Shown in pieces: positions 5,384 to 63,390 of a DNA stretch of 64,000 nt. How positions within the stretch are numbered: the first letter of the stretch is position 1; the number at the start of each line of letters is the position of its first letter. Made by a program: the position numbers and the translations under genes. The DNA is from Patescibacteria group bacterium (GTDB taxonomy: Bacteria > Patescibacteriota > Minisyncoccia > Moranbacterales > UBA1568), in assembly GCA_038078615.1 (NCBI GenBank), contig JBBTWT010000007.1, forward strand, positions 1,060 through 65,059, given 5' to 3'. The notes beneath the pieces were generated by a model that worked only from the letters and a program-made list of their open reading frames with translations, was not told the origin of the DNA and made no database searches.

Positions 5384-5483
5384 ACCTGATTTTTCTTGCG
5401 TACGCGGAGAAACCTCCCCAGTCCCTCTGTACACATTTTTCCACGACCGTGGAGAAATGTGTACAAATATAAAATGACGCGTG

Positions 5484-19945: not shown

Positions 19946-19978
19946 TCCTTGAACAGTTCAAAAAATATCTTGAGGTAA

Positions 19979-20203
19979 ACCCCGTTAGAAGCTCACACGG
20001 GGAATTACACTCTGTGTGATCTGAAATTAACGGGCATTTATTCCCGTTAGAGAGAGGGTACAATTGTGATCGCTTCCATTCCGAGAATATCTGTTCATGG
20101 TCGGTATCTATCATATCGTATGTATGGTATCCCATTGCAACTGTGATCTCTAACGGGACTTGTCCCCGCGACAAGCCACAAGGCGTTCTGCTTCTAACGG
20201 GGT
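19979..20203. repeat. Nested inverted-repeat structure with five TAACGGG/CCCGTTA heptamers
   Basis: Outer 14-bp perfect IR: ACCCCGTTAGAAGC (19979-19992) with GCTTCTAACGGGGT (20190-20203). Inner 12-bp IR: 20042-20053 with 20047-20058. Local hairpin: 20028-20034 with 20043-20049. TGTGATC occurs three times (20015, 20065, 20142). Confidence 0.8.
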
Positions 20204-20341
20204 AAAAAAAGATGCCGCGGCACAGGGAACAAGGGGAGTTGTACCGTGTGCGTTGGCATCGAAGTCTGGCCGGTTTTCGGGAGGGGAGCTTCCCGGAGGA
20301 GACAGGCCAGACATGCAGAAGTCATAAGTCATGGGTCCTGG

Positions 20342-22245: not shown

Positions 22246-25044
22246 ATGCCAGAGAAAAAGCCGATGATCGAGATTCGCGGCGCGCGGGTCAACAACCTGA
22301 AGAACGTGGACGTCGATATCCCTCGTGATGCTTTGGTGGTGGTGACCGGCTTGTCCGGTTCGGGCAAATCCTCATTAGCTTTCGATACTCTTTTCGCGGA
22401 AGCGAATCGGCGCTATGTCGAGTCGCTTTCTTCGTATGCGCGCAATTTTCTCGACGGATTCGACAAGCCGGACGTCGACGCGATCCACAACCTTTCGCCC
22501 GCCATCTCCATCGACCAGAAGAGCGTGTCGAGGAGCCCGCGTTCGACGGTCGGGACGATGACGGAGATCTATGATTACCTGCGTATCCTGTTCGCCAAGC
22601 TCGGGATTCCGCATTGTCCATCGTGCGGCAAGCGTCTCACAAGAAAGAGCGTGCGCGAGATACTCGAAGAGCTCCTCCTCCTGCCCGACAAGACGCCGCT
22701 CGCATTCATCGCGTATGGCAAGGCGCTCGCCGACAAGACCGAACGCGAGGCGCTCTCACTCATCAATGCCTGGGGATACGTACGGGTCCTGTTTCACGGG
22801 GAGCTCTCGCCGATCGCCGAAGCGATAGGACGCGCGTCCGCGACGGAAATCTCGGATATCGGCGTGGTCGTCGACCGTCTCGAGATCGACCTGTCCCGTC
22901 CCGACAAGGAGCGTATCCTCGATTCGCTCCAGACCGCGTTCCGCGTCGGCCAGGGGACGCTCACGCTCCGCATCAATGGTACCGGTGAAGAACGTATCTA
23001 CAACGAGGAATACCGCTGTGAAGAATGCCATATCGGGCTGCCGGAGTTCACGCCGAGCTGCTTTTCCTTCAACAGTCCCGAGGGCGCGTGCGAGAAGTGC
23101 GCGGGCCTTGGCGTGACGCTCGAATTCGATCCGGAACTCGTCATCCCCAACAAGAACCTGTCGCTCGCCGAAGGGGCGATCCGTCCGTGGAGCAAGATGA
23201 ACAGCGACCGCCACAGCGGCAACGGGCCGATGCAGTGGCTGCGCGACGCGAGCCGGCGGCACAAATTCTCGCTCGATATTCCGGTGAAGAAGCTCGCCGG
23301 TAAGCATTTCTCCCTCATACTGCACGGGGAAGGCGGCACGGAGCAGGATGCCTTTCCCGGCATCATCGCGCTTCTGGAGAAGAAATACCGCGAGACGAAA
23401 TCGGATCATCTGCGTACGGACATCGAGGCGTATATGCTGACCAAGCTCTGCCCTCTCTGCGAGGGGAAGCGCCTGAAGGCGGCATCGCTCGCCGTGAAGA
23501 TAGAGGGACTTTCTATCGATGATCTCGTGAAGCAGAGCGTCGATATGTTCCTGGAGAGGATGAAGCCGCTGCGGGAAAAATGCCTGAAGACGGGCGAGAA
23601 GAAGATGATCGATCCCTTGTTCCGCGAGATGGAGATGCGGCTCTCCGCCGTGGAAAAAGTGGGACTCGGATATCTCGAGCTCTCGCGCGGCGCCGATACG
23701 CTGTCCGGAGGAGAGGCGCAGCGTATCCGCCTGTCAGTGCAGATGAAATCTGGGCTTTCCGGCATCATCTATGTCCTCGACGAGCCGTCGATCGGGCTGC
23801 ACAGCCGCGATACGGAACGCCTGATCAACGCGCTCGAGGATCTGCGGAAAGCGAACAATTCTCTCGTGATCGTCGAGCATGACGTGGCGATCATGCGCCG
23901 GGCGGACTATATCATCGATCTGGGTCCGGGCGCCGGCAGCGAGGGCGGCGAGATCATCTTCGCGGGCACGCCGGACAAGCTGATGCGCTCGAAGCTCCTG
24001 ACCGGCGAATACCTCTCCGGCAAACGCAGCATATCCGAGAAGAAGAAGGCGCGTCGTCTGAGCGAAGAGGCGATCACTGTTTTCGGCGCGACGGAACACA
24101 ATCTGAAGAATGTCGACGTGAAGATCCCGCTCGGGATGCTCGTGGCGGTTTCCGGCGTCTCGGGATCGGGCAAATCGAGCCTGGTGCATGACATCCTGTC
24201 CCGGGCGCTGTCGAAATATTTCTATCATGCCAAGGCCGAGCCGGGCGCGCACAGGAAGATCGAGGGGATCTCGAATATAGACAAGGTGATCGCCGTGACG
24301 CAGGATCCGATCGGACGGACGCCGCGTTCGAACGCGGCGACGTATACCGGCATCTTCAGCCTGATCCGCGACCTGTTCGCGGCGACGACGGAAGCCGAGC
24401 GCGAGAAATATTCCGCCAGTCATTTCAGCTTCAATATGCGCGGCGGCCGCTGCGAGGCATGCCAGGGCGGCGGATTGAAGAAGATCGAGATGTATCTCCT
24501 GCCGGATGTCTACGTACCGTGCGAAGTCTGTCAGGGGACGAGATACAACGCGAAGACGCTCTCGATCGAATATCGCGGAATGAATATCGCGGCCGTGCTC
24601 CGCATGACGGTCACGGAAGCGCGCCGCTTCTTCCTGGATCAGCCGATGATCGAAGAGAAGCTGCGCGTGCTCGAGGAAGTCGGTCTCGGATATCTGGTAC
24701 TCGGACAGAGCGCGACCAACCTCTCCGGAGGAGAGGCGCAGCGTATCAAGCTCGCGACAGAACTGGCACGAAAATCGACCGGCAAGACGCTCTATATCCT
24801 CGACGAGCCGACGATCGGCCTGCATTTCGAGGATGTGCGGCGCCTGCTCGAGGTGCTCGAAGCGCTGACGGACAAAGGCAACAGCGTGCTCGTCGTGGAG
24901 CACAATCTCGATGTCATCCGCTCGGCGGATTGGGTGCTGGAGCTCGGTCCGGACGGCGGCGCCAAGGGCGGGGAGCTCATCTTCTCCGGACCGCCGGACA
25001 AATTGAAAAACTGCAAGCGTTCATTCACGGCGAAATATCTATAA
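22246..25044 (+). CDS. uvrA: Excinuclease ABC subunit A (full-length type)
   Basis: [20 protein letters not shown] twice, [11 protein letters not shown], Zn modules, and an insertion-domain-length segment between CAGLG and CPLCEGKRL. Confidence 0.95.
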
Positions 25045-25084
25045 TTTTTAAAAGAGGGTTTTTTGTCTTAGAATCGAAAGCATC

Positions 25085-25149
25085 CCGGAAGTTTTCAGAT
25101 GAACCGTGCCGAAGAGGTTTCGCCACATGGTTCCCTAAAAAACTTCCGG
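25085..25149. repeat. Rod-like hairpin element, short copy (core shared with 47539-47655)
   Basis: CCGGAAGTTTT ... AAAACTTCCGG 11-bp outer stem. The inner 39-40 nt AGATGAACCGTGCCGAAGAGGTTTCGCCACATGGTTCCCT differs at 2 positions from 47561-47600. Confidence 0.85.
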
Positions 25150-25182
25150 AATCCTTTTGACACTGCGCTACTATCACAACAT

Positions 25183-27401: not shown

Positions 27402-28772
27402 GTGTTCGCTACAAGCTACAGGCTACAAGCTACAGGCTACAGGGGATTCACGCTGATCGAAGCGCTGGTTTTGCTGTTTATTTTCGCCGTGGTGTCCATG
27501 ACTTTCCTCGAGACGTACGCGACCGGAACGCGCCTCATCATAGAGTCGAAAAACCGGCTCGGAGCGACAGCGCTTGCCAATCAGAAGATGGAGATCATCC
27601 GCAGCATCGACTACGATATTATCGGTACGACGACCGGTATCCCGGCAGGAGATATTCTCGAGTATGAAACAATCAGCGTCAACACGGTGAAGTATCGGGT
27701 GCATACGTTCGTTCAGTATGCCGATGATATTTTTGACGGACAGCTGGGGGGCAATCCGACCGATACGATTCCCAACGATTACAAACGCGTCAAAATTTCC
27801 GTTTCGTGGGGTGCTCTGGGAACGGATCAGACGGTTTCTTTGTTTACGAATATCGCTCCCGATGGCGTGGAAACTTCGGCAGGCGGCGGCGTGCTCTCGA
27901 TCAATATCCTGGATTCCGCCGGTATGGGAATGTCGGGCGCCTCGGTGCATATCGTGAATAGCGCTGCCGGTGTCGACGTAACGACGCAAACCGACGCGAC
28001 CGGCAATATCACTTTGCCGGGTACGCCGGCAGGAACGCAGAATTATGCATTGACCGTTTCGAAGGGCGGTCATTACGGAGTTATGACGTATCCGCCGTAT
28101 CCGACGTCTCCGTACAATCCGATCGATGAACACGCGTCGGTAGCGGCAGGGGTTTTGAATCAGAAGTCGATGGTTATGGATCAGTATGCCGATATCACGG
28201 TGCGGTCGAAAGACCCGTTCGGAACGGATGTACCGAACATCGCTTTCAATATGACGGGTGGGAAAATTCTTGGCACGGATCCGGTAACACTGGCGTCGAT
28301 CTATGAATACAATCAGAATCTGAGCACGAGTGCTTCCGGCGTCAAGGACATCGCGGATCAGAGTTACGGCCAGTATACGCTTGCGGAATCCGATGCGCGT
28401 TATCAGTTGCACAAGCTGAGTCCGGAAGGCGCGACGAAAGATATATTCGACGCTCTGGCGGGGCAGGCGACAGCGGTGGATATGGTACTCCTGGATACTC
28501 AGATCGGTTCGGTGAAGGTTGTGGTCATCAATGATGCCGATGGCAGTCCTATCGCGGGGGCGACTGTGCGCCTTACGAACACATCGCTCGGGTACGACGC
28601 GACCCAGTTGTCCGATCAGTACGGGTTCGCGTATTTTCCGACCGCGCTTCCGGGACTCGTGGCCGGAACGTATAATCTCGCGGTGAGCGCGACTGGTTTT
28701 CAAAGTGATACTGATACGGCGAATGTGAACAATGCTCTGATCACGGAAACCATTGATTTGATTCCAAACTGA
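27402..28772 (+). CDS. Large prepilin-type protein with CarboxypepD_reg-like beta-sandwich repeats
   Basis: Class III signal ...GYRG/FTLIEALVLLFIFAVV (G-F-T-L-I-E). Two segments resemble G.V.V....G.P..GA.V.L......TD..G...F. GTG start directly after the pilC stop. Confidence 0.75.
   Translation: MFATSYRLQATGYRGFTLIEALVLLFIFAVVSMTFLETYATGTRLIIESKNRLGATALANQKMEIIRSIDYDIIGTTTGIPAGDILEYETISVNTVKYRVHTFVQYADDIFDGQLGGNPTDTIPNDYKRVKISVSWGALGTDQTVSLFTNIAPDGVETSAGGGVLSINILDSAGMGMSGASVHIVNSAAGVDVTTQTDATGNITLPGTPAGTQNYALTVSKGGHYGVMTYPPYPTSPYNPIDEHASVAAGVLNQKSMVMDQYADITVRSKDPFGTDVPNIAFNMTGGKILGTDPVTLASIYEYNQNLSTSASGVKDIADQSYGQYTLAESDARYQLHKLSPEGATKDIFDALAGQATAVDMVLLDTQIGSVKVVVINDADGSPIAGATVRLTNTSLGYDATQLSDQYGFAYFPTALPGLVAGTYNLAVSATGFQSDTDTANVNNALITETIDLIPN
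27408..27442 (+). repeat. Heptanucleotide tandem repeat (GCTACAR)x5 inside the prepilin leader coding region
   Basis: GCTACAA GCTACAG GCTACAA GCTACAG GCTACAG, read directly. Confidence 0.95.
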
Positions 28773-36247: not shown

Positions 36248-36283
36248 ACCTTACTTTTTATGCAATTGCATAAAAAGTAAGGT
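36248..36283. repeat. Perfect AT-rich palindrome, copy 1 of 2
   Basis: ac-CTTACTTTTTATGCAATTGCATAAAAAGTAAG-gt. The identical 32-nt core recurs at 61482-61513. Confidence 0.95.
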
Positions 36284-38553: not shown

Positions 38554-39954
38554 ATGAAAATACTGATCTCTCGGGAAAATGCGGGGTATTGGCAGAAAAA
38601 AGGTGCGCTTGCGTTCCGTTTTGACGTGAATGGCAAGGACGGTATCATCGTCTCGCAGGGCGGCAGGCATACCTGTTTGTTTTCCATGGGTGACAAAGAA
38701 ATGACGCGGCGCAAGCTGATGCTCCTCGTGCGGCGCATGGTCTCCGAGGCGGTCGCCAAGAAATACAAGATGATCGTCGTGGATTTCAAACAACTCCGTT
38801 TTCCGGGCATAACGATATCTGACAGCGAACTCGCCGAACTGATCACAGTCAATCTTCTGATGGCGGATTTCGTATTCCGTGATTTCCTTTCCAAACCGAA
38901 AGAGGGATTCTCGGACGTAGAAACCGTCGCCGTGGTACATGCTTCGGGCCAAGACATCAAGCGTGGTATCGAGCGCGGGACAATCATCGGCGAAGAAGCG
39001 AACCGTTCGCGGCACATCGCGACGATGCCGGGCGGGGAGATGACGCCGGAAATTCTGGCACGACACGCGAAACAATCCGTGAAGGGGCTCCCGGTGAAAT
39101 ACTCTGTACTCGATGAGAGAGCGATGAAACGTCTCAAGATGGGCGGCGTGCTCGGTGTAGGTAAGGGATCGGAGGCAAAACCGTGTTTCATCATTCTCGA
39201 GTATTTCGGTGCATCCGATAAAAAAGAAAAACCAGTCGTGCTCATAGGCAAAGGCGTGACATTCGATACGGGTGGCATCAACCTGAAGCCGAGCGATTCC
39301 ACTCTCGGAATGAATATGGATATGTCTGGTGGCGCGGCGGTGATTCACGCGCTCGCGGCAGCCGCACGATTGAAACTCAAGAAAAATATCATCGTGCTGG
39401 TTCCGGCGGTGGAGAATATGATGTCGGGATCGAGCTACCGTCCCGGAGACGTACTGCGTTCGATGTCCGGCAAGACGATCGAGGTGCAGAATACCGATGC
39501 CGAAGGACGGATCATCCTCGCCGACGCGCTCACCTATGCCAAGCGCTACCAGCCGTCGCTCGTCGTGGATGTCGCGACGCTCACGGGCGCGGCGCTCGTC
39601 GCACTCGGGGAACGTGCGACCGCACTCTTCACGCAGGATGAAAAACTGGAGCAGATATTCCGCCATCTCGGCGAAGAGAGCGGAGACTATGTCTGGCCGC
39701 TGCCGCTGTGGGACGAATATGACACGGAGATCAAGGGCACGTTCGGCGATGTGGCGAATGTCGGCAAGACACGTTGGGGCGGAGCGATCACTGCGGCCGC
39801 ATTTCTCAAGCAGTTCGTCGACGACGCATATCCGTGGGTGCATCTCGACATCGCGCCGCGGATGACGACGCTGCCGGACGAATTCCTGTCCAAAGGCTCC
39901 GCCGGCGCCCCGGTTCGTCTCTTGGTGAAGCTGCTGGAGAAGTTCCCATCGTAA
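38554..39954 (+). CDS. pepA: Leucyl aminopeptidase (M17)
   Basis: VGKGVTFDTGGINLKP and NTDAEGRIILADAL signatures. Confidence 0.9.
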   Translation: MKILISRENAGYWQKKGALAFRFDVNGKDGIIVSQGGRHTCLFSMGDKEMTRRKLMLLVRRMVSEAVAKKYKMIVVDFKQLRFPGITISDSELAELITVNLLMADFVFRDFLSKPKEGFSDVETVAVVHASGQDIKRGIERGTIIGEEANRSRHIATMPGGEMTPEILARHAKQSVKGLPVKYSVLDERAMKRLKMGGVLGVGKGSEAKPCFIILEYFGASDKKEKPVVLIGKGVTFDTGGINLKPSDSTLGMNMDMSGGAAVIHALAAAARLKLKKNIIVLVPAVENMMSGSSYRPGDVLRSMSGKTIEVQNTDAEGRIILADALTYAKRYQPSLVVDVATLTGAALVALGERATALFTQDEKLEQIFRHLGEESGDYVWPLPLWDEYDTEIKGTFGDVANVGKTRWGGAITAAAFLKQFVDDAYPWVHLDIAPRMTTLPDEFLSKGSAGAPVRLLVKLLEKFPS

Positions 39955-39994
39955 GTAGAAGAAAGAACACTTCAGGATTTTTTGAGGACTATTC

Positions 39995-40022
39995 AAAATG
40001 GCTTTAAGAGGCCATTTTTTTG
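39995..40022 (+). terminator. Intrinsic terminator after pepA
   Basis: AAAATGGC-tttaagag-GCCATTTT running into T7. Confidence 0.65.
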
Positions 40023-40049
40023 GTGTACAAAAAGTGTATAACTTTCGGG

Positions 40050-40112
40050 TTGACGGCTTGGTGGTGAGTGGCGTAAAATGGGGACTAGTTAACCAAAGTG
40101 GGTGAAAGTGGG
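40050..40112 (+). promoter_or_regulatory. dcw-cluster promoter with MraZ-box-like direct repeats
   Basis: TTGACG (40050-40055), 18-nt spacer, TAAAAT (40074-40079). Direct repeats AAAATGGG (40075), AAAGTGGG (40095) and AAAGTGGG (40105) are spaced 20 and 10 nt apart. Confidence 0.55.
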
Positions 40113-40201
40113 GAATACGACGAAGTCGTCCCAAACTTGATTTGGGATCTGCAAAGTAATCCATAGATACTGAATCAAGTTCAGTATGACATCGGAATGT
40201 C

Positions 40202-40636
40202 ATGTTCATCGGAGAATATTCGCACACGATCGATCCCAAGAAGCGCCTGGCGCTTCCTTCGAAGTTCCGCGGCGAACTGGGGAGCAAAGTCGTCGTGACG
40301 CGAGGACTCGACCACTGCCTGTTCGTGTACCCGATGAAAGTCTGGGGCGACCTTGCGACGAAACTGGGCACGCTGCCCGTCGGCGAATCGGGCACGCGCA
40401 GCTTCATCCGCATCATGCTCGCGGGTGCGACGGACGTGGAACTCGACAGCCAGGGACGCGTGCTTCTGCCGGAATATCTGAAGAGCGACGGCGGCCTGAA
40501 GAAAGACGTGACGATCGTGGGACTTTTCAACCGCTTGGAAATCTGGGACACGGCGAAGTGGAAGCGGTACAAAGCGCAGGCGGAGAAGCAGACCGGCAAG
40601 ATCGCGGAGGAATTGGGGAAACTGGGAGTGTACTAA
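40202..40636 (+). CDS. mraZ: Transcriptional regulator MraZ
   Basis: MFIGEY..IDPKKRLALPSKFR and a second SpoVT/AbrB-like half with DSQGRVLLP. First gene of the dcw cluster. Confidence 0.9.
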   Translation: MFIGEYSHTIDPKKRLALPSKFRGELGSKVVVTRGLDHCLFVYPMKVWGDLATKLGTLPVGESGTRSFIRIMLAGATDVELDSQGRVLLPEYLKSDGGLKKDVTIVGLFNRLEIWDTAKWKRYKAQAEKQTGKIAEELGKLGVY

Positions 40637-40637
40637 G

Positions 40638-40780
40638 GAATTTTCAATTTTTAGTTTTCAATTTTCAAACAATGATACGATGATCCAATTTTCGAAAGCT
40701 TTCCGGTTCCGCAAGGCACATTTGAAAATTAGGTCATTGGAAATTCATTAGAAATTGAAAATTGAAAATTGGAAATTGAC
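40638..40780. repeat. Inverted arrays of heptanucleotide repeats, (TTTTCAA)n and (GAAAATT)n, between mraZ and rsmH
   Basis: Left arm 40641-40668: TTTTCAA TTTTTAG TTTTCAA TTTTCAA. Right arm 40750-40780: GAAATT GAAAATT GAAAATT GGAAATT GAC. The arms are mutually complementary. Confidence 0.9.
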
Positions 40781-40787
40781 GAATGTT

Positions 40788-41747
40788 ATGACTAAGCATA
40801 TTCCGGTACTGCTCGAAGAGACGATGGAAGGTTTGTACCTTAAGAAAGGAGACGTCGTCATTGATGCGACGCTCGGCGGAGGCGGACATACGCGGGAGAT
40901 TCTGCGGCGTATCTTGCCTGGAGGCAGAGAGATCGCGATCGATGCGGATGCTGAGGCGCTCGGACGGATGCGTGAATCCGCACAGTCGGACGAGCCGCTC
41001 GCGCAGGCGCTCGCTGACCGATCCCTGACGCTCGTGCAAGGCAACTATTCTTCATTGGGAAGAATACTCGAGCAAGAGGATGTCGGCCCCTGCGATGCGA
41101 TCCTCGCGGATCTGGGGTTCTCATCGGATCAGATCGAGGCGGCCGAGAGAGGGTTCAGTTTTCTCCGGAGCGGTCCGCTCGATATGCGACTGGACCGTTC
41201 GACGCCGCTCACGGCCGAGAAAATCGTGAACACGTTCTCTCCCGAAGAGATCAGCCGGATACTTCGAGACTACGGAGACGAACGCGAAAGCTGGCGTATC
41301 GCCCAGGCGATCACGGCGTCTCGCGCGATACGGCCGATCACGACGACCGATGAGCTCCGTGACATCATCGAGAAAGCATATCCGAAGGGGAGGCGTCATC
41401 GGATGAAGATCCATCCGGCCACCAGGACATTTCAGGCGCTCCGCATCGCGGTCAATCAGGAGTTTGAGCATCTGGCAGCGTTCCTTGCGGCTGCGATGGA
41501 GCGTCTGAAACCCGGCGGCCGCCTCGCGGTCATCGCGTTCCACTCCGGCGAAGACGCGTTGGTCAAGCGATTTTTCAAAGAAAAAACTCGAGGATGTATT
41601 TGCCCGCCAGCATTTCCGATATGTCGCTGCGGGAGGAAACCCGCCGTGAACATACTCACCAAAAAACCGATTATTCCGACTGAGAGGGAAAGACTGGCAA
41701 ACCCGCGTGCGCGCAGCGCCAAGCTGCGCATCATAGGGAAGCTCTGA
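40788..41747 (+). CDS. rsmH: 16S rRNA (cytosine1402-N4)-methyltransferase
   Basis: HIPVLLEE, DATLGGGGHT, DLGFSSDQ and FHSGEDALVK. Start moved to ATG 40788, after the repeat array. Confidence 0.9.
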   Translation: MTKHIPVLLEETMEGLYLKKGDVVIDATLGGGGHTREILRRILPGGREIAIDADAEALGRMRESAQSDEPLAQALADRSLTLVQGNYSSLGRILEQEDVGPCDAILADLGFSSDQIEAAERGFSFLRSGPLDMRLDRSTPLTAEKIVNTFSPEEISRILRDYGDERESWRIAQAITASRAIRPITTTDELRDIIEKAYPKGRRHRMKIHPATRTFQALRIAVNQEFEHLAAFLAAAMERLKPGGRLAVIAFHSGEDALVKRFFKEKTRGCICPPAFPICRCGRKPAVNILTKKPIIPTERERLANPRARSAKLRIIGKL

Positions 41748-45347: not shown

Positions 45348-45463
45348 TGAATCGAGAATGAGGAATCGAGAATAAACAATAAGGCGAATGGCGAGCATTG
45401 CGATTTTCTTGCTTTTGATTTATTCTTGATGTATGATGCGCAATTCCTGATTCCTTTTCAGAT

Positions 45464-47538: not shown

Positions 47539-47655
47539 AGAAAAGATTTCAAAAGTTTTTAGATGAACCGCGCCGAAGCGGTTTCGCCACATGGTTCCCT
47601 GCCCGAAGTGCTACATCGTGGCAGGCGGGCCTAAAAAACTTTTGAAATCTTTTCT
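47539..47655. repeat. Rod-like hairpin (MITE-like) element, long copy
   Basis: 23/24-bp terminal inverted repeats: AGAAAAGATTTCAAAAGTTTTTAG with CTAAAAAACTTTTGAAATCTTTTCT. The inner core is shared with 25098-25136. Carries an extra hairpin CTGCC..GGCAG. Confidence 0.9.
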
Positions 47656-50080: not shown

Positions 50081-50149
50081 CATTCAGCGCGATGTTCTTC
50101 AGGAGGACGTTTGTGGGATGATCATCGTGTATATTGCTACATATCTACA

Positions 50150-50187
50150 CCTACACATCTATGTGCGACCGCACAGAGATGTGTAGG
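50150..50187. repeat. Palindromic repeat, copy 2 of 3
   Basis: CCTACACATCT-at-GTGCG-ac-CGCAC-ag-AGATGTGTAGG, ending 10 nt upstream of ATG 50198. Confidence 0.9.
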
Positions 50188-50197
50188 TCACAAAGGC

Positions 50198-50827: not shown

Positions 50828-50863
50828 CTACACATCTATGTGCGGTCGCATATAGATGTGTAG
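50828..50863. repeat. Palindromic repeat, copy 3 of 3
   Basis: CTACACATCTATGTGCGGTCGCATATAGATGTGTAG, starting 22 nt after the stop of the PaaX-like gene. Confidence 0.9.
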
Positions 50864-50967
50864 ATGCTGATACCGATGAGTGAGAAGATCGGCAGAATGT
50901 TCGGAGCAAGTGGGAGAGAAGTATGATATCTTGATATTGCGAAATATTTCCCAGCAGCTTCTTGTTT

Positions 50968-61478: not shown

Positions 61479-61516
61479 AGTCTTACTTTTTATGCAATTG
61501 CATAAAAAGTAAGACT
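61479..61516. repeat. Perfect AT-rich palindrome, copy 2 of 2
   Basis: agt-CTTACTTTTTATGCAATTGCATAAAAAGTAAG-act. The flanks differ from copy 1 but are still self-complementary. Confidence 0.95.
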
Positions 61517-61536: not shown

Positions 61537-63390
61537 ATGAGACAACAGAACATCCGCAATTTCTGCATCATAGCCCATATCGATCACGGGAAGTCCACGC
61601 TGGCCGACCGCCTGCTTGAGCTGACGAAAACCGTGGAGATGCGCAAGATGAAGGAACAGCTTCTGGATCAGATGGATCTCGAGCGCGAGCGCGGCATCAC
61701 GATCAAGCTGCAGCCGGTGCAGATGCATTACAAAGTCAAAAGTCAAAAGTCAAAAGTCAAAAGTGACAAGAGCGGGGGCGAAGAGGAAGAAGTTGAATAT
61801 ACTTTGAATCTGATCGATACGCCGGGACACGTGGACTTCCATTACGAGGTGTCCAGGTCGCTGGCGGCCGTCGAAGGCGCGGTGCTGCTCGTCGACGCGA
61901 CCAAGGGCGTGCAGGCGCAGACGCTCGCCAACCTGTACCTGGCGATCGGCCAGGGGCTGACGATCATTCCGGTCGTGAACAAGATAGACTTGCCCAACGC
62001 GGAGACGGAAAAGGTGAAAAAAGAGATCGTGCATATTCTGGGCTGCAAGGAGGAAGACATACTGCTCGCGTCCGGGAAAACCGGTATGGGCGTGCAGGCA
62101 TTGCTCGAGCGCGTGATCGAGCGTGTGCCCGCACCGGAGGGAGACGAAGCCAAGCCGCTTCGCGCGCTCATTTTCGACTCCATCTACAATACGTACAAAG
62201 GAGTGGTGGCGTACGTGAAAGTGGTGGACGGAACCGTGAAACGCGATGATGCTCTCCATATGCTCGGGACGGAAAAAGAAGGCGTGACGGTGGAAGTCGG
62301 CCTGTTTAAGCCGGGTCTGGTACCGACGGATATCCTGCGCGCCGGTGACATCGGCTATATTGCGACCGGATTGAAAGCGGTCGGGGATTGCCGCGTCGGC
62401 GATACGGTGACGTGGAAACCGCGGGAACGCGCGCCTATCGTCGTCGAACGATTGCCCGGCTACAAGGAAATCCGACCGGCGGTCTATGCGAGTTTCTATC
62501 CCGTGGACGGCGATGACTATACGCTGATGCGCGACGCGCTCGAAAAGCTGAAACTCAACGATGCGGCATTCACCTTCGAGCCGGAAAGCAATCAGGCGCT
62601 GGGTCGCGGTTTCCGCTGCGGTTTCCTGGGACTCCTGCACCTCGAGATCATCCAGGCGCGGCTCGAGCGCGAGTTCGGTCTCACTCCGACGATCACGACG
62701 CCGTCGGTCGTGTATGAACTCGCACTCCGCGGAGACGACAGGCGCATCCCGCTGTATTCGCCGGCCGCACTGCCGGATCCGGCCAGTATCGAGAAGATAT
62801 ATGAGCCGTATGTCGCCCTCTCGATCGTGGCACCGAGCGGGTATCTGGGAAACGTGATGGCGCTCGCTCAATCCATCCGCGCGGACTACAAGAATACGGA
62901 ATACATCGATGCCGAGCGTGTGTTGCTCACTTTCGAAGCGCCGCTGATGGATGTCATCATCAATTTTCACGATGATCTGAAAAGCGCCTCATCCGGCTAT
63001 GCCTCGATGAACTATGAGCCGATCGGCTACCGCGAGAGCGACGTCGTGAAGCTCGACATCCTGGTCGCCGATGAGCGTATCGATGCGTTCGCGCGCATGA
63101 TACCGAGGCGCGACGCCTATGCCGAGGGCAAACGCGTCGTCGAGAAGCTGAAAGAGGAGATCCCGCGCCAGAACTTCGCCGTGGCCATCCAGGCGGCTAT
63201 CGGCGGCAAGGTCATCGCCCGCGAGACGCTCTCCGCCTACCGCAAGGACGTCACCGGCAAGCTGTACGGGGGGGATTTTTCCCGCAAGAAGAAGCTGCTC
63301 GAGAAACAAAAGAAAGGCAAAAAAAAGATGCGCGATATCGGCAAAGTCTCCATTCCGAGTCATGCTTTTCTGGCAGTCTTGAGAAAGTAA
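61537..63390 (+). CDS. lepA: Elongation factor 4
   Basis: IRNFCIIAHIDHGKSTLADR, DTPGHVDF, NKIDL and the LepA C-terminal domain. 15-aa insertion encoded by heptamer repeats. Confidence 0.95.
   Translation: MRQQNIRNFCIIAHIDHGKSTLADRLLELTKTVEMRKMKEQLLDQMDLERERGITIKLQPVQMHYKVKSQKSKVKSDKSGGEEEEVEYTLNLIDTPGHVDFHYEVSRSLAAVEGAVLLVDATKGVQAQTLANLYLAIGQGLTIIPVVNKIDLPNAETEKVKKEIVHILGCKEEDILLASGKTGMGVQALLERVIERVPAPEGDEAKPLRALIFDSIYNTYKGVVAYVKVVDGTVKRDDALHMLGTEKEGVTVEVGLFKPGLVPTDILRAGDIGYIATGLKAVGDCRVGDTVTWKPRERAPIVVERLPGYKEIRPAVYASFYPVDGDDYTLMRDALEKLKLNDAAFTFEPESNQALGRGFRCGFLGLLHLEIIQARLEREFGLTPTITTPSVVYELALRGDDRRIPLYSPAALPDPASIEKIYEPYVALSIVAPSGYLGNVMALAQSIRADYKNTEYIDAERVLLTFEAPLMDVIINFHDDLKSASSGYASMNYEPIGYRESDVVKLDILVADERIDAFARMIPRRDAYAEGKRVVEKLKEEIPRQNFAVAIQAAIGGKVIARETLSAYRKDVTGKLYGGDFSRKKKLLEKQKKGKKKMRDIGKVSIPSHAFLAVLRK
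61734..61768 (+). repeat. Heptanucleotide tandem repeat (AGTCAAA)x4 plus one degenerate unit inside lepA
   Basis: AGTCAAA four times (61734-61761), then AGTGACA. Encodes KSQKSKVKSD. Confidence 0.95.

Follow-up and report, generated by a model that had tools for sequence, protein, structure and literature searches.

What is a long, AT-rich and repetitive spacer doing between mraZ and rsmH in the genome of an uncultivated Candidatus Moranbacteria (Patescibacteria)? In the 64-kb stretch of DNA that we analysed (hereafter the window), mraZ (40202-40636, + strand; 144 aa, PF02381; stop codon TAA at 40634-40636) is followed on the same strand by rsmH, also called mraW (ATG 40788-41747; 319 aa, PF01795), whose start is set by the conserved N-terminus MTKHIPVLL. 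The spacer between them measures 151 nt and has a GC content of 30%, compared with 55% for the window. An independent assembly (L001) carries the identical spacer, which excludes an assembly artefact.

Heptad arrays and predicted hairpin of the spacer

The first-pass annotation of this DNA described two mutually complementary heptamer arrays between the genes, and both are present. Tandem Repeats Finder calls a 5′ array of period 7, with 4.3 copies of AATTTTC, at 40639-40668 (+ strand) and a 3′ array of the same period, with 4.0 copies, at 40752-40779 (+ strand), where the consensus AAATTGA is a rotated GAAAATT; a period-11 pair is also called at 40734-40756. Taken together, the 3′ arrays (40734-40779, + strand) read CATTGGAAATTCATTAGAAATT followed by four GAAAATT units, and this 3′ arm doubles as the AU-rich leader of rsmH. 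The core between the arrays (40669-40733, + strand) holds one further AATTTTC/GAAAATT heptad pair, which contributes the inner helix described below, and an apical part that varies. Orthologues keep AAACAATG..ATAATG and ATTTGAAAATT but not the apex.

The inverted repeat of the spacer is the strongest within the window. Its arms, 40639-40673 and 40743-40777, are 35 nt long, 80% complementary and 69 nt apart, and in several shifted registers the complementarity reaches 88-93%. Allowing up to two mismatches, the 14-mer TTTTCAATTTTCAA has seven matches in the window, where shuffled sequences average 0.56. Six of the seven lie in the spacer.

The sense-strand RNA is predicted to fold into one long hairpin (40640-40784, + strand), with 60 bp in the minimum free energy (MFE) structure, made up of 39 A-U, 13 G-C and 8 G-U pairs (65% A-U). 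The outer helix, for which the 5′ array supplies the 5′ arm, pairs 40640-40668 with 40755-40784 over about 29 bp with one bulge and almost without G-C pairs, in agreement with the earlier statement that the arrays can pair over more than 20 nt. It is followed inwards by middle helices (40670-40685 with 40732-40751), an inner helix (40687-40696 with 40721-40730) and an apical stem-loop (40698-40717), all on the + strand. The small palindromes reported earlier in the spacer do exist, but they are the inner helix of this same hairpin. The sense fold has an MFE of -51.7 kcal/mol, compared with -27.9 +/- 3.2 kcal/mol for shuffled sequences (z = -7.5; none of 200 shuffles was as stable), and the antisense strand, folded as a control, gave -33.0 kcal/mol (z -2.9). 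At the foot of the predicted hairpin the mraZ stop and the rsmH ATG are each separated from the stem by only 3 unpaired nt, which places the paired rsmH start region within ribosome reach of the mraZ stop. The predicted outer helix also has the length of an RNase III substrate, a class that requires some 20 bp or more of almost uninterrupted double-stranded RNA.

Conservation, covariation and strand bias among relatives

A spacer of about 150 nt had been considered unusual at this junction. For this clade it is not, as a long mraZ-rsmH spacer occurs in roughly every second related species. Spacer lengths are bimodal, with 59 shorter than 30 nt and 57 (non-redundant) of 60-200 nt. Among the 57 long spacers, 41 are strongly structured (z <= -3) and 21 have period 7, and other clades use different repeat units in the same layout. 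In the 41 structured spacers the median gap is 3 nt from the stop codon to the stem and 6 nt from the stem to the start codon. When folded, long spacers leave an effective unpaired stop-to-start distance with a median of 11 nt (IQR 6-15), matching that of the short-spacer class (median 8 nt, IQR 1-15). A tetramer resembling the Shine-Dalgarno (SD) motif is found at 12 of 58 starts, against a background of 22%.

A comparison of the spacer in relatives, which the first-pass annotation had suggested, found the arms conserved in orthologues, though some close relatives have short spacers. Orthologous spacer arms are 74-100% identical at distances where four-fold sites of mraZ are 23-47% identical and thus saturated. 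The spacers of L114 and L124 share 98.9% identity at 67% third-position identity, and those of L007 and L113 share 96% at 58%. The most conserved part is 40734-40779, which is identical in 42 of 42 columns in the relative L103. There the 5′ array has lost two units, yet conservation of the 3′ array is 100%, which suggests a constraint on the 3′ array in addition to pairing. Spacers of only 10-13 nt occur in relatives that are just as close (L003, L004, L091, L097-L099), which indicates that the element is dispensable. A covariance model located the family where mraZ meets rsmH in relatives; elsewhere it found only weaker AT-rich heptad hairpins.

Across 16 Moranbacteria spacers, 91.5% of the cells are paired. 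Double-sided changes account for 26 cells in this alignment, compared with 11.2 +/- 2.6 in shuffles, none of which reached 26 in 500 trials, and the covariation score is 0.25, compared with 0.02-0.10 in slid controls. The variable position of the heptad covaries between the arms through C-G, G-C, A-U and U-A. In every heptad of the alignment the AATT core is invariant, and this invariance, judged from the aligned sequences, goes unexplained by a pure pairing constraint.

The greater stability of the sense fold recurs in orthologues and in a sister family (L105, L002, L114, L113); in L114, for example, the sense fold has 8 G-U pairs and the antisense fold 1. Of 50 structured spacers, 32 fold more stably as the sense strand and 17 as the antisense strand (Wilcoxon p 0.02), and 35 hairpins from other intercistronic sites, which form an independent set, are sense-favoured in 23 cases against 11 (p 0.007), p-values that are optimistic because the spacers are not phylogenetically independent. 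Counting G-T against A-C mismatches in Watson-Crick-only hairpin alignments gave 25 versus 19, which is not significant; the energy-based comparison of sense and antisense is the more sensitive of the two.

Candidate functions of the hairpin

Because of the sense-strand-specific stability, the covariation and the stop-to-start placement, a function at the RNA level is the best-supported reading. The earlier idea that the spacer affects how mraZ is connected to the remaining dcw genes survives in this form, though not as an attenuator of the terminator type. We tentatively propose, with confidence a little short of even, that the spacer encodes a cis-acting sense-strand mRNA hairpin that would couple or gate the translation of the downstream division genes. 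This model presupposes that the spacer is transcribed and that the hairpin folds in vivo. Its arms would have originated from 7-nt tandem duplications, the dominant slippage product in Patescibacteria genomes, an origin that the repeat counts given below support, and selection would afterwards have kept both arrays complementary.

In the computed fold, the hairpin would loop out about 145 nt, bring the mraZ stop and the rsmH ATG to within 3 + 3 unpaired nt of each other, and lock the AU-rich rsmH leader, which has no SD motif, in a 29-bp helix. Given the lack of SD use in the genome and the locked leader, free ribosomes would presumably be unable to start translating rsmH from the full-length transcript. 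When a ribosome terminates at the mraZ stop codon, it would cover and melt the stem base, and with the adjoining rsmH start region thus exposed it could re-initiate there. The translation of rsmH, and via rsmH that of the downstream dcw genes, may thereby be coupled to or gated by the translation of mraZ; this coupling step itself we infer. In effect, the long spacer would then be equivalent to the spacers of 1-15 nt found in relatives. The long AU-rich duplex might in addition, or instead, be cut by a nuclease specific for double-stranded RNA (dsRNA), an outcome compatible with the model.

Taken as the sole function, such cleavage is the strongest alternative to coupling, although we consider it unlikely. 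RNase III or another dsRNA nuclease would cut the outer helix of about 29 bp and separate a hairpin-capped mraZ mRNA from an rsmH-dcw mRNA, setting different stabilities and levels for the two. The RNA-level evidence, namely sense bias and covariation, fits a processing site equally, and so does a helix longer than about 20 bp with nearly no G-C pairs. Phage T7 and rRNA operons provide classical examples of RNase III hairpins between cistrons. The passage of PMC12957436 that cites Maeda et al. 2016 refers to RNase III-dependent control of mraZ mRNA in Corynebacterium glutamicum. A motif search of the window and the compared loci gave no RNase III signature, a result that is uninformative for the whole genome. 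Processing leaves unexplained, however, why the stem sits exactly between stop and start and why the 3′ array is conserved despite a shortened 5′ arm.

Another possibility, in our view improbable, is that the element acts as DNA, with the heptads bound by an oligomerising protein of the ribbon-helix-helix style (omega repressor, MetJ, ParG) that regulates transcription through or within the dcw operon. A strict 7-bp period, present in both direct and inverted orientation, and a fixed AATT core in each unit would suit such an operator, as would sequence conservation in excess of pairing needs and the operator-like tandem 20-bp palindromes (TCCTAAC..GTTAGGA) found at the same junction in L139, L144 and L157-161. 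There are also precedents: the omega repressor of pSM19035 binds operators made of heptads. Heptad operators of the form TTTTGAT occur at the ctxAB promoter (bioRxiv 2021.05.14.444153). The spacer shares with both operators the AT-rich 7-bp tandem units, direct and inverted, in regulatory DNA. Yet those operators are contiguous, lie at promoters and have known binding proteins, whereas the spacer arrays are separated by a core of 70-85 nt, lie between two coding sequences without a promoter, and are paired strand-specifically through G-U. An asymmetry between sense and antisense that is driven by G-U pairs would be meaningless for duplex DNA. Moreover, repeat units differ among the hairpins of one genome (L064, L078, L038) and would need many cognate proteins, heptad arrays occur in coding regions too, and we have no candidate protein.

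MraZ itself does not fill this role. It recognises GTGG boxes at 10-bp spacing, defined as GTG(G/T) plus 6 nt (PMC12957436), and the spacer has period 7 rather than 10 and no GTGG. Box-like GTGG/ATGG repeats with 10-bp spacing can be read off the sequence upstream, at 40068-40111 on the + strand (40068, 40078, 40098 and 40108), and would represent the expected MraZ operator, separate from the spacer heptads.

More improbable still is a non-functional by-product or selfish element, that is, 7-nt slippage with templated inverted duplication, or the insertion of a MITE, that is merely tolerated. The background does lend it some plausibility. Seven is the commonest tandem-repeat period, whether in spacers, in other intergenic DNA or in coding DNA, with 40 period-7 arrays in coding DNA and 7-nt tandem duplications within genes too, among them lepA and rsmH; presence and absence of the element differ among close relatives; and the excess of heptamer repeats in bacteria has been attributed to polymerase slippage (PMC4692102). 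Against mere tolerance, the spacer hairpins change at a much lower rate than synonymous sites and show compensatory covariation. Hairpins with periodic arms reach 1.08/kb in mraZ-rsmH spacers versus 0.066/kb in other intergenic DNA (p 4e-7, optimistic for the reason given above), a 13- to 16-fold enrichment, and a complementary partner accompanies 39 of 55 arrays in spacers, compared with 33 of 89 in intergenic and 2 of 45 in coding DNA.

The MITE put forward in the first-pass annotation is discounted for reasons of its own. The arms, 35 nt long and 80% complementary, would pass for terminal inverted repeats, but they are internally periodic, which is untypical of transposase-binding repeats. 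The flanks, CTAAGG and GACGAA, contain no direct repeat that could be a target-site duplication. There is one copy in the 64-kb window, and the element occupies the orthologous junction across species whose four-fold sites are saturated.

The least probable reading, also raised by the first-pass annotation, is that the spacer holds an internal promoter, an array of UP elements, or an attenuator or terminator of the intrinsic type that uncouples the transcription of mraZ from that of rsmH and the dcw genes: the AT-rich DNA with repeated TTGAAA (-35-like) hexamers, the location and the conservation of the 3′ array alone in L103 would suit it, but arm covariation and G-U bias are unexpected for a promoter and neither kind of signal was found in the spacer. 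The only + strand match to a sigma-70 promoter in 39900-41000 is that of mraZ (TTGACG-18-TAAAAT, 40050-40079, from a consensus scan), the one weak match in the spacer lies on the - strand, and the alignment of 16 spacers has no conserved -10-like hexamer. As to termination, the AU-rich stem is followed by GACGAAUGUUAUG rather than a U-tract, and no terminator-like site was seen in the spacer. Canonical terminators are in use in the host genome, as exemplified 640 nt upstream by an intrinsic-terminator-like hairpin with a T-run (39995-40018, + strand) at the end of the upstream aminopeptidase gene (Peptidase_M17).

Relation to known repeats and structures

Our literature searches turned up no account of heptad repeats or inverted repeats from Patescibacteria or from the mraZ-rsmH junction. 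Rfam returned no match for the whole window at the gathering threshold; at E <= 10, the region 40580-40850 matched only miRNA-precursor and snoRNA models, generic hairpins of the plant-miRNA kind, with scores of 14-24 bits where the cut-offs are 40-140. A tRNA/tmRNA scan was likewise negative. The closest precedents are the actinobacterial mraW motif and the paired heptamer repeats of Xanthomonas.

The mraW motif, located in the 5′ UTR of mraW (rsmH) in Actinobacteria, is likewise a conserved RNA structure directly upstream of rsmH, and downstream of mraZ, in the dcw cluster, but differs in that its hairpin is short, has a conserved loop and lacks repeat arrays. The Rfam model of this motif matches the spacer in neither sequence nor structure. 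In C. glutamicum the motif is transcribed as an mRNA leader (PMC4046766).

In Xanthomonas the repeat unit is GGGAATC and in Nostoc/Anabaena it is GGGGA(T/C)T, of the cyanobacterial STRR type; these repeats are mostly intergenic, conserved in position and variable in length, and some lie within operons (pecE-pecF), and at 70-75 Xanthomonas loci two convergent arrays on opposite strands form potential stem-loops (PMC4692102). The spacer shares with them the 7-nt tandem unit and the mostly intergenic arrays, and it has the layout of the Xanthomonas pairs, with at least 3-4 tandem units in each of two close, convergent intergenic arrays. Whereas those genomes each have one G-rich unit family with G-quadruplex potential, the spacer units are AT-rich and specific to locus and clade. 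Pairing, moreover, is here the rule at one operon junction, with covariation and sense G-U pairs, and spans the distance from stop to start.

Operon-internal stem-loops that set differential mRNA stability or processing are familiar from RNase III hairpins and from REP/BIME palindromes. The spacer hairpin resembles both as a long stem-loop between genes of one transcript, and differs from both by its tandem-heptad arms. REPs are multi-copy families, whereas the spacer element is single-copy in the window and locus-specific.

Structure-mediated coupling has examples in the MS2 coat-replicase pair and in the shunt of the CaMV 35S leader. As in those systems, a downstream start would be masked by pairing near an upstream stop, and the two would meet at the foot of a hairpin. 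In contrast to them, coupling at the spacer is read purely from the geometry and from the absence of SD use. We know of no bacterial operon in which a 145-nt spacer is looped out for coupling.

Other hairpins with periodic arms likewise fill entire spacers between co-directional genes. A wider proposal, which we consider speculative and unlikely as it stands, is that Patescibacteria have a phylum-wide and so far undescribed class of intercistronic 'heptad-zipper' hairpins that would have arisen from the 7-nt slippage bias and been fixed by selection. Such hairpins would loop out spacers of 60-200 nt and let ribosomes pass from stop to start without an SD, by termination-reinitiation or by shunting across the stem foot; the mraZ-rsmH junction would be their main site, setting dcw translation per MraZ.

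Gene expression in the Candidate Phyla Radiation, most members of which cannot be grown, is almost unexplored. In many lineages, the first junction of the cell-division operon holds a conserved, covarying and sense-specific structure, which is a candidate cis-regulatory device in organisms that make no use of Shine-Dalgarno sites. It would link a mutational oddity, the 7-nt duplications found everywhere, to a selected structure, so that new RNA structures may arise from slippage products. Beside Xanthomonas, it offers a second independent case of the long-unexplained paired heptamer repeats of bacteria, and it adds evidence for selection on pairing beyond the repeat alone.

Three minor observations concern similar sequences. 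In viral contigs, a (GAAAATT)3 21-mer matched seven unrelated, unpaired arrays, which are uninformative on function. A 40-nt core possibly shared with hairpins at 25 kb and 47.5 kb, the latter matching no Rfam family at E <= 10, was discarded as too weak, with only GATGA.CC...GGTTCC in common in a three-sequence alignment. Finally, the spacer at 45348-45463, between a Mur ligase gene and TerC, has a similar look with its GAATCGA-type array; its fold is weak (z -1.7), and it was not counted as a family member for that reason.

A heptad-repeat hairpin fills the mraZ-rsmH spacer

The mraZ gene (40202-40636, PF02381) and rsmH (ATG at 40788, PF01795) are separated by a spacer of 151 nt with a GC content of only 30%, versus 55% for the window. 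The first-pass annotation had described two complementary heptamer arrays at this junction, and this description proved accurate. Tandem Repeats Finder detects a period-7 array of AATTTTC at 40639-40668 (4.3 copies) and a second one of AAATTGA, a rotated GAAAATT, at 40752-40779 (4.0 copies), which pair as reverse complements; a period-11 pair (40734-40756) lies 5' of the latter. The arms, 40639-40673 and 40743-40777 (35 nt), show 80% complementarity, rising to 88-93% in several slipped registers, and make up the strongest inverted repeat of the whole 64-kb window. The unit pair TTTTCAATTTTCAA, allowing at most two mismatches, matches seven times in the window, six of them inside the spacer, versus 0.56 in shuffles. 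Since the independent assembly L001 carries an identical spacer, the element is no assembly artefact.

The sense RNA, i.e., the mraZ/rsmH mRNA strand, of 40630-40795 is predicted to fold into a single hairpin (40640-40784) with a minimum free energy of -51.7 kcal/mol, compared with -27.9 ± 3.2 for shuffled sequences (z = -7.5), none of 200 of which folded equally well. The two arrays form a 29-bp outer helix (40640-40668 with 40755-40784), which is followed by middle helices (40670-40685 with 40732-40751), an inner helix built from a further AATTTTC/GAAAATT pair (40687-40696 with 40721-40730) and a small apical stem-loop, giving 60 pairs in total (39 A-U, 13 G-C and 8 G-U). The stem base lies 3 nt past the mraZ TAA, and the other foot 3 nt short of the rsmH ATG. 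The antisense strand folds far more poorly (-33.0 kcal/mol, z = -2.9), the sense G-U pairs being A-C mismatches there.

Conservation, covariation and distribution among relatives

MraZ homologues place the organism in Candidatus Moranbacteria (Patescibacteria). We gathered 80 species-representative and 80 metagenome loci and took every mraZ-rsmH spacer. Lengths were bimodal, with 59 of the 135 non-redundant spacers shorter than 30 nt and 57 at 60-200 nt. True orthologues of the element occur in loci L002/L090-94, L105, L103, L138, L109, L122 and others. Compared with the window, these loci are saturated at the four-fold degenerate mraZ sites (23-47% identity), and their 5' and 3' arms retain 74-91% and 74-100% identity, respectively; in L103 the 3' arm is identical in 42 of 42 columns, with a 5' array shorter by two units. 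Two less diverged pairs of relatives repeated this pattern: third-position identity was 67% and spacer identity 98.9% for L114 versus L124, and 58% and 96% for L007 versus L113. Equally close relatives (L003, L004, L091, L097-99) carry spacers of 10-13 nt, so the element is dispensable, with a history of gain or loss.

We aligned 16 spacer sequences and scored the outer helix over 17 pairs, in which 91.5% of cells were paired. AATT is constant in each heptad; the seventh position is variable and covaries with its partner, as at one pair with C-G in 5 sequences, A-U in 5, U-A in 3 and G-C in 1, and two further heptad pairs gave similar counts. Double-sided changes amounted to 26 cells versus 11.2 ± 2.6 in shuffles, a number reached in none of 500, and the covariation score was 0.25 versus 0.02-0.10 with partners slid by 1-3 columns. 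The element is real, non-random and under evolutionary constraint. Pairing alone does not explain the constant AATT core, the 3' array kept independently in L103, or a junction that tolerates loss of the element.

Of 49 structured spacers that were informative, 32 had a more stable fold on the sense than on the antisense strand (mean difference -2.8 kcal/mol; Wilcoxon p = 0.02), and so did 23 of 34 hairpins from other intercistronic sites with co-directional neighbours (mean -3.2; p = 0.007). The difference is large in the window (-18.7 kcal/mol), its orthologues and a sister family, and sense versus antisense G-U pairs number 8 and 1 in L114, 6 and 0 in L113, and 7 and 2 in L105. A cruder count of G-T versus A-C mismatches gave 25 versus 19, without significance. 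On balance, the structure appears to be selected in the transcript.

Other clades share the design with unrelated repeat units: CTGACAA/GTTGTGR in L007, L113 and L114, AATTTCTA in L084, ATTTCGA in L012, CAAGAAA in L017, AGTAAAA in L078 and CCTAAAT-like units in L056. Windowed self-similarity of at least 0.75 was found in 24 of the 57 long spacers (2 of 285 shuffles), at lag 7 in 21 of these, and folding gave z of -3 or below for 41 of the long spacers. Per kb, mraZ-rsmH spacers contain 2.0 strong ungapped hairpins and 1.08 periodic-arm hairpins, versus 0.44 and 0.066 in the remaining intergenic DNA of these loci (binomial p = 4e-7 for the periodic-arm class, uncorrected for relatedness). The density of period-7 arrays drops from 4.06 per kb in the spacers to 0.30 in the rest of the intergenic DNA and 0.034 in coding sequence; 39 of 55 spacer arrays, 33 of 89 intergenic ones and 2 of 45 coding ones have a complementary partner no more than 260 nt away. 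The mraZ-rsmH junction is therefore special for such hairpins. The remaining periodic hairpins also occupy entire spacers of co-directional genes, several of them elsewhere in the dcw cluster.

At the same junction, more distant Moranbacteria (L157-L161, L139, L144) carry a tandem pair of ~20-bp palindromes of the TCCTAACATTCGATGTTAGGA type (21-bp perfect stem, z of -7 to -12), which look more operator-like than the heptad type. L105 has, besides its spacer hairpin, a second AT-rich heptad hairpin in the mraZ 5' UTR (1464-1594), between the MraZ boxes and the mraZ start.

Proposed translational coupling and competing readings

A canonical terminator (39995-40018) marks the 3' end of the upstream aminopeptidase gene, and a sigma-70-like promoter, TTGACG-18-TAAAAT (40050-40079), lies 5' of mraZ; rsmH is followed by an FtsL-sized ORF, an FtsI-type PBP and a Mur ligase. 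SD-like tetramers precede 12 of 58 predicted starts versus 22% of random 19-mers, and leaders are A/U-rich instead; this genome does not use Shine-Dalgarno sites. In 41 structured spacers, the median distance is 3 nt from stop codon to stem and 6 nt from stem to start codon. Once the stem is closed, a median of 11 nt stays unpaired (IQR 6-15), which matches the short-spacer class (median 8, IQR 1-15). The 3' arm doubles as the AU-rich leader of the SD-less rsmH. In the full-length mRNA, the hairpin would sequester this leader; a ribosome finishing mraZ would melt the stem base and could re-initiate at the adjoining rsmH AUG. The long spacer would then act as a short one, with rsmH and the dcw genes tied to mraZ at the level of translation. 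We tentatively read the hairpin as a device for translational coupling or gating, at a little under an even chance.

Processing through dsRNA cleavage, akin to the RNase site proposed in the first-pass annotation, is compatible with coupling and rather unlikely in our view; in its favour, RNase III has been linked to mraZ mRNA in C. glutamicum (cited in PMC12957436). Several further readings are rejected: that of a promoter and that of a terminator, because the spacer contains neither a + strand promoter nor a terminator; the mraW motif or any other Rfam family, because the scan of the spacer gave no family and its sole hits were generic long hairpins far below threshold; and the suggested MITE and an MraZ operator, in membership tests. 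Operator-like GTGG/ATGG boxes with 10-bp spacing, read from the sequence, lie upstream (40068-40111) and fit the definition GTG(G/T) + 6 nt (PMC12957436).

Among known systems, the closest kinds are structure-mediated translational coupling, intercistronic RNase III or REP-type hairpins and, on functional grounds, the mraW leader motif. Equally close are the intergenic heptamer repeats that Xanthomonas and Nostoc carry in pairs; they are alike in unit length, intergenic position and convergent pairing, but form one G-rich family per genome and bear no sign of selected pairing.

Origin of the heptads and other structured elements

Bacterial heptamer repeats are described as over-represented, with slippage over the polymerase footprint as a hypothesis, in PMC4692102 citing Mrazek 2007; paired convergent heptamer arrays are on record in Xanthomonas (PMC4692102). 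In our census of tandem arrays with at least three copies in 1.2-1.6 Mb of Patescibacteria DNA, period 7 was by far the most frequent of all, with 189 arrays versus 47, 35 and 37 for periods 6, 8 and 9. The bias persists in species representatives, outside spacers, and in Moranbacteria as well as other lineages. Even coding sequence shows it, with 40 arrays at period 7 versus 20 and 18 at periods 6 and 9; there, only multiples of three heptad units keep the reading frame. Since the bias is found everywhere, coding DNA included, the period is best explained by mutational supply and not by a functional 7-nt molecular ruler.

In the window, (AAAGTCA)x4.7 at 61732-61764 is an in-frame insertion within a lepA-like gene, encoding KVKSQKSKVKS, and exemplifies heptad slippage in an essential coding region. 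(GCTACAG)x5 at 27408-27443 occupies codons 3-13 in the leader of a prepilin-like ORF (weak N_methyl match), with the GFTLIE N-methylation motif directly 3'; because a 7-nt change in copy number shifts the frame, it is a candidate phase-variation switch. In many Moranbacteria, rsmH itself contains an in-frame array of 4-8 heptads (AATTTCC, AATTTCA or AAAATTC) at about +180 nt, for example at L008 4566-4620, L110 1902-1931, L104 1155-1184 and L152 3617-3646; it encodes an FPISNFQFP-like surface loop, and its unit is similar to the heptad in the window's spacer. Seven unrelated viral contigs (L162-L168), two of them with 63-68% GC, contain unpaired (GAAAATT)n arrays of 3-8 units.

Two further long intercistronic hairpins, at 47539-47655 in the rfbC/rfbB spacer (z = -7.1) and at 25074-25160 past a 932-aa gene ending at 25044 (z = -3.3), share an exact 40-nt core, AGATGAACCGnGCCGAAGnGGTTTCGCCACATGGTTCCCT (47561-47600 and 25097-25136), within unrelated AT-rich stems; they have no Rfam match and no copy among 161 related loci or in viral contigs. 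A gene-free stretch of 396 nt (19946-20341) contains nested long-range helices (CCCCGTTAGAAGC.../...GCTTCTAACGGGG, z = -5.3) and matches no Rfam family, tRNA or tmRNA; it may be a structured RNA that has escaped annotation. Two families of perfect or near-perfect palindromes lie just 5' of + strand genes, ACCTTACTTTTTATGCAA|TTGCATAAAAAGTAAGGT in two copies (36248-36283, 61479-61516) and ..ACACATC..GATGTGT.. in four (2472-2505, 5428-5465, 50149-50188, 50828-50865), and both could be operators or terminators.
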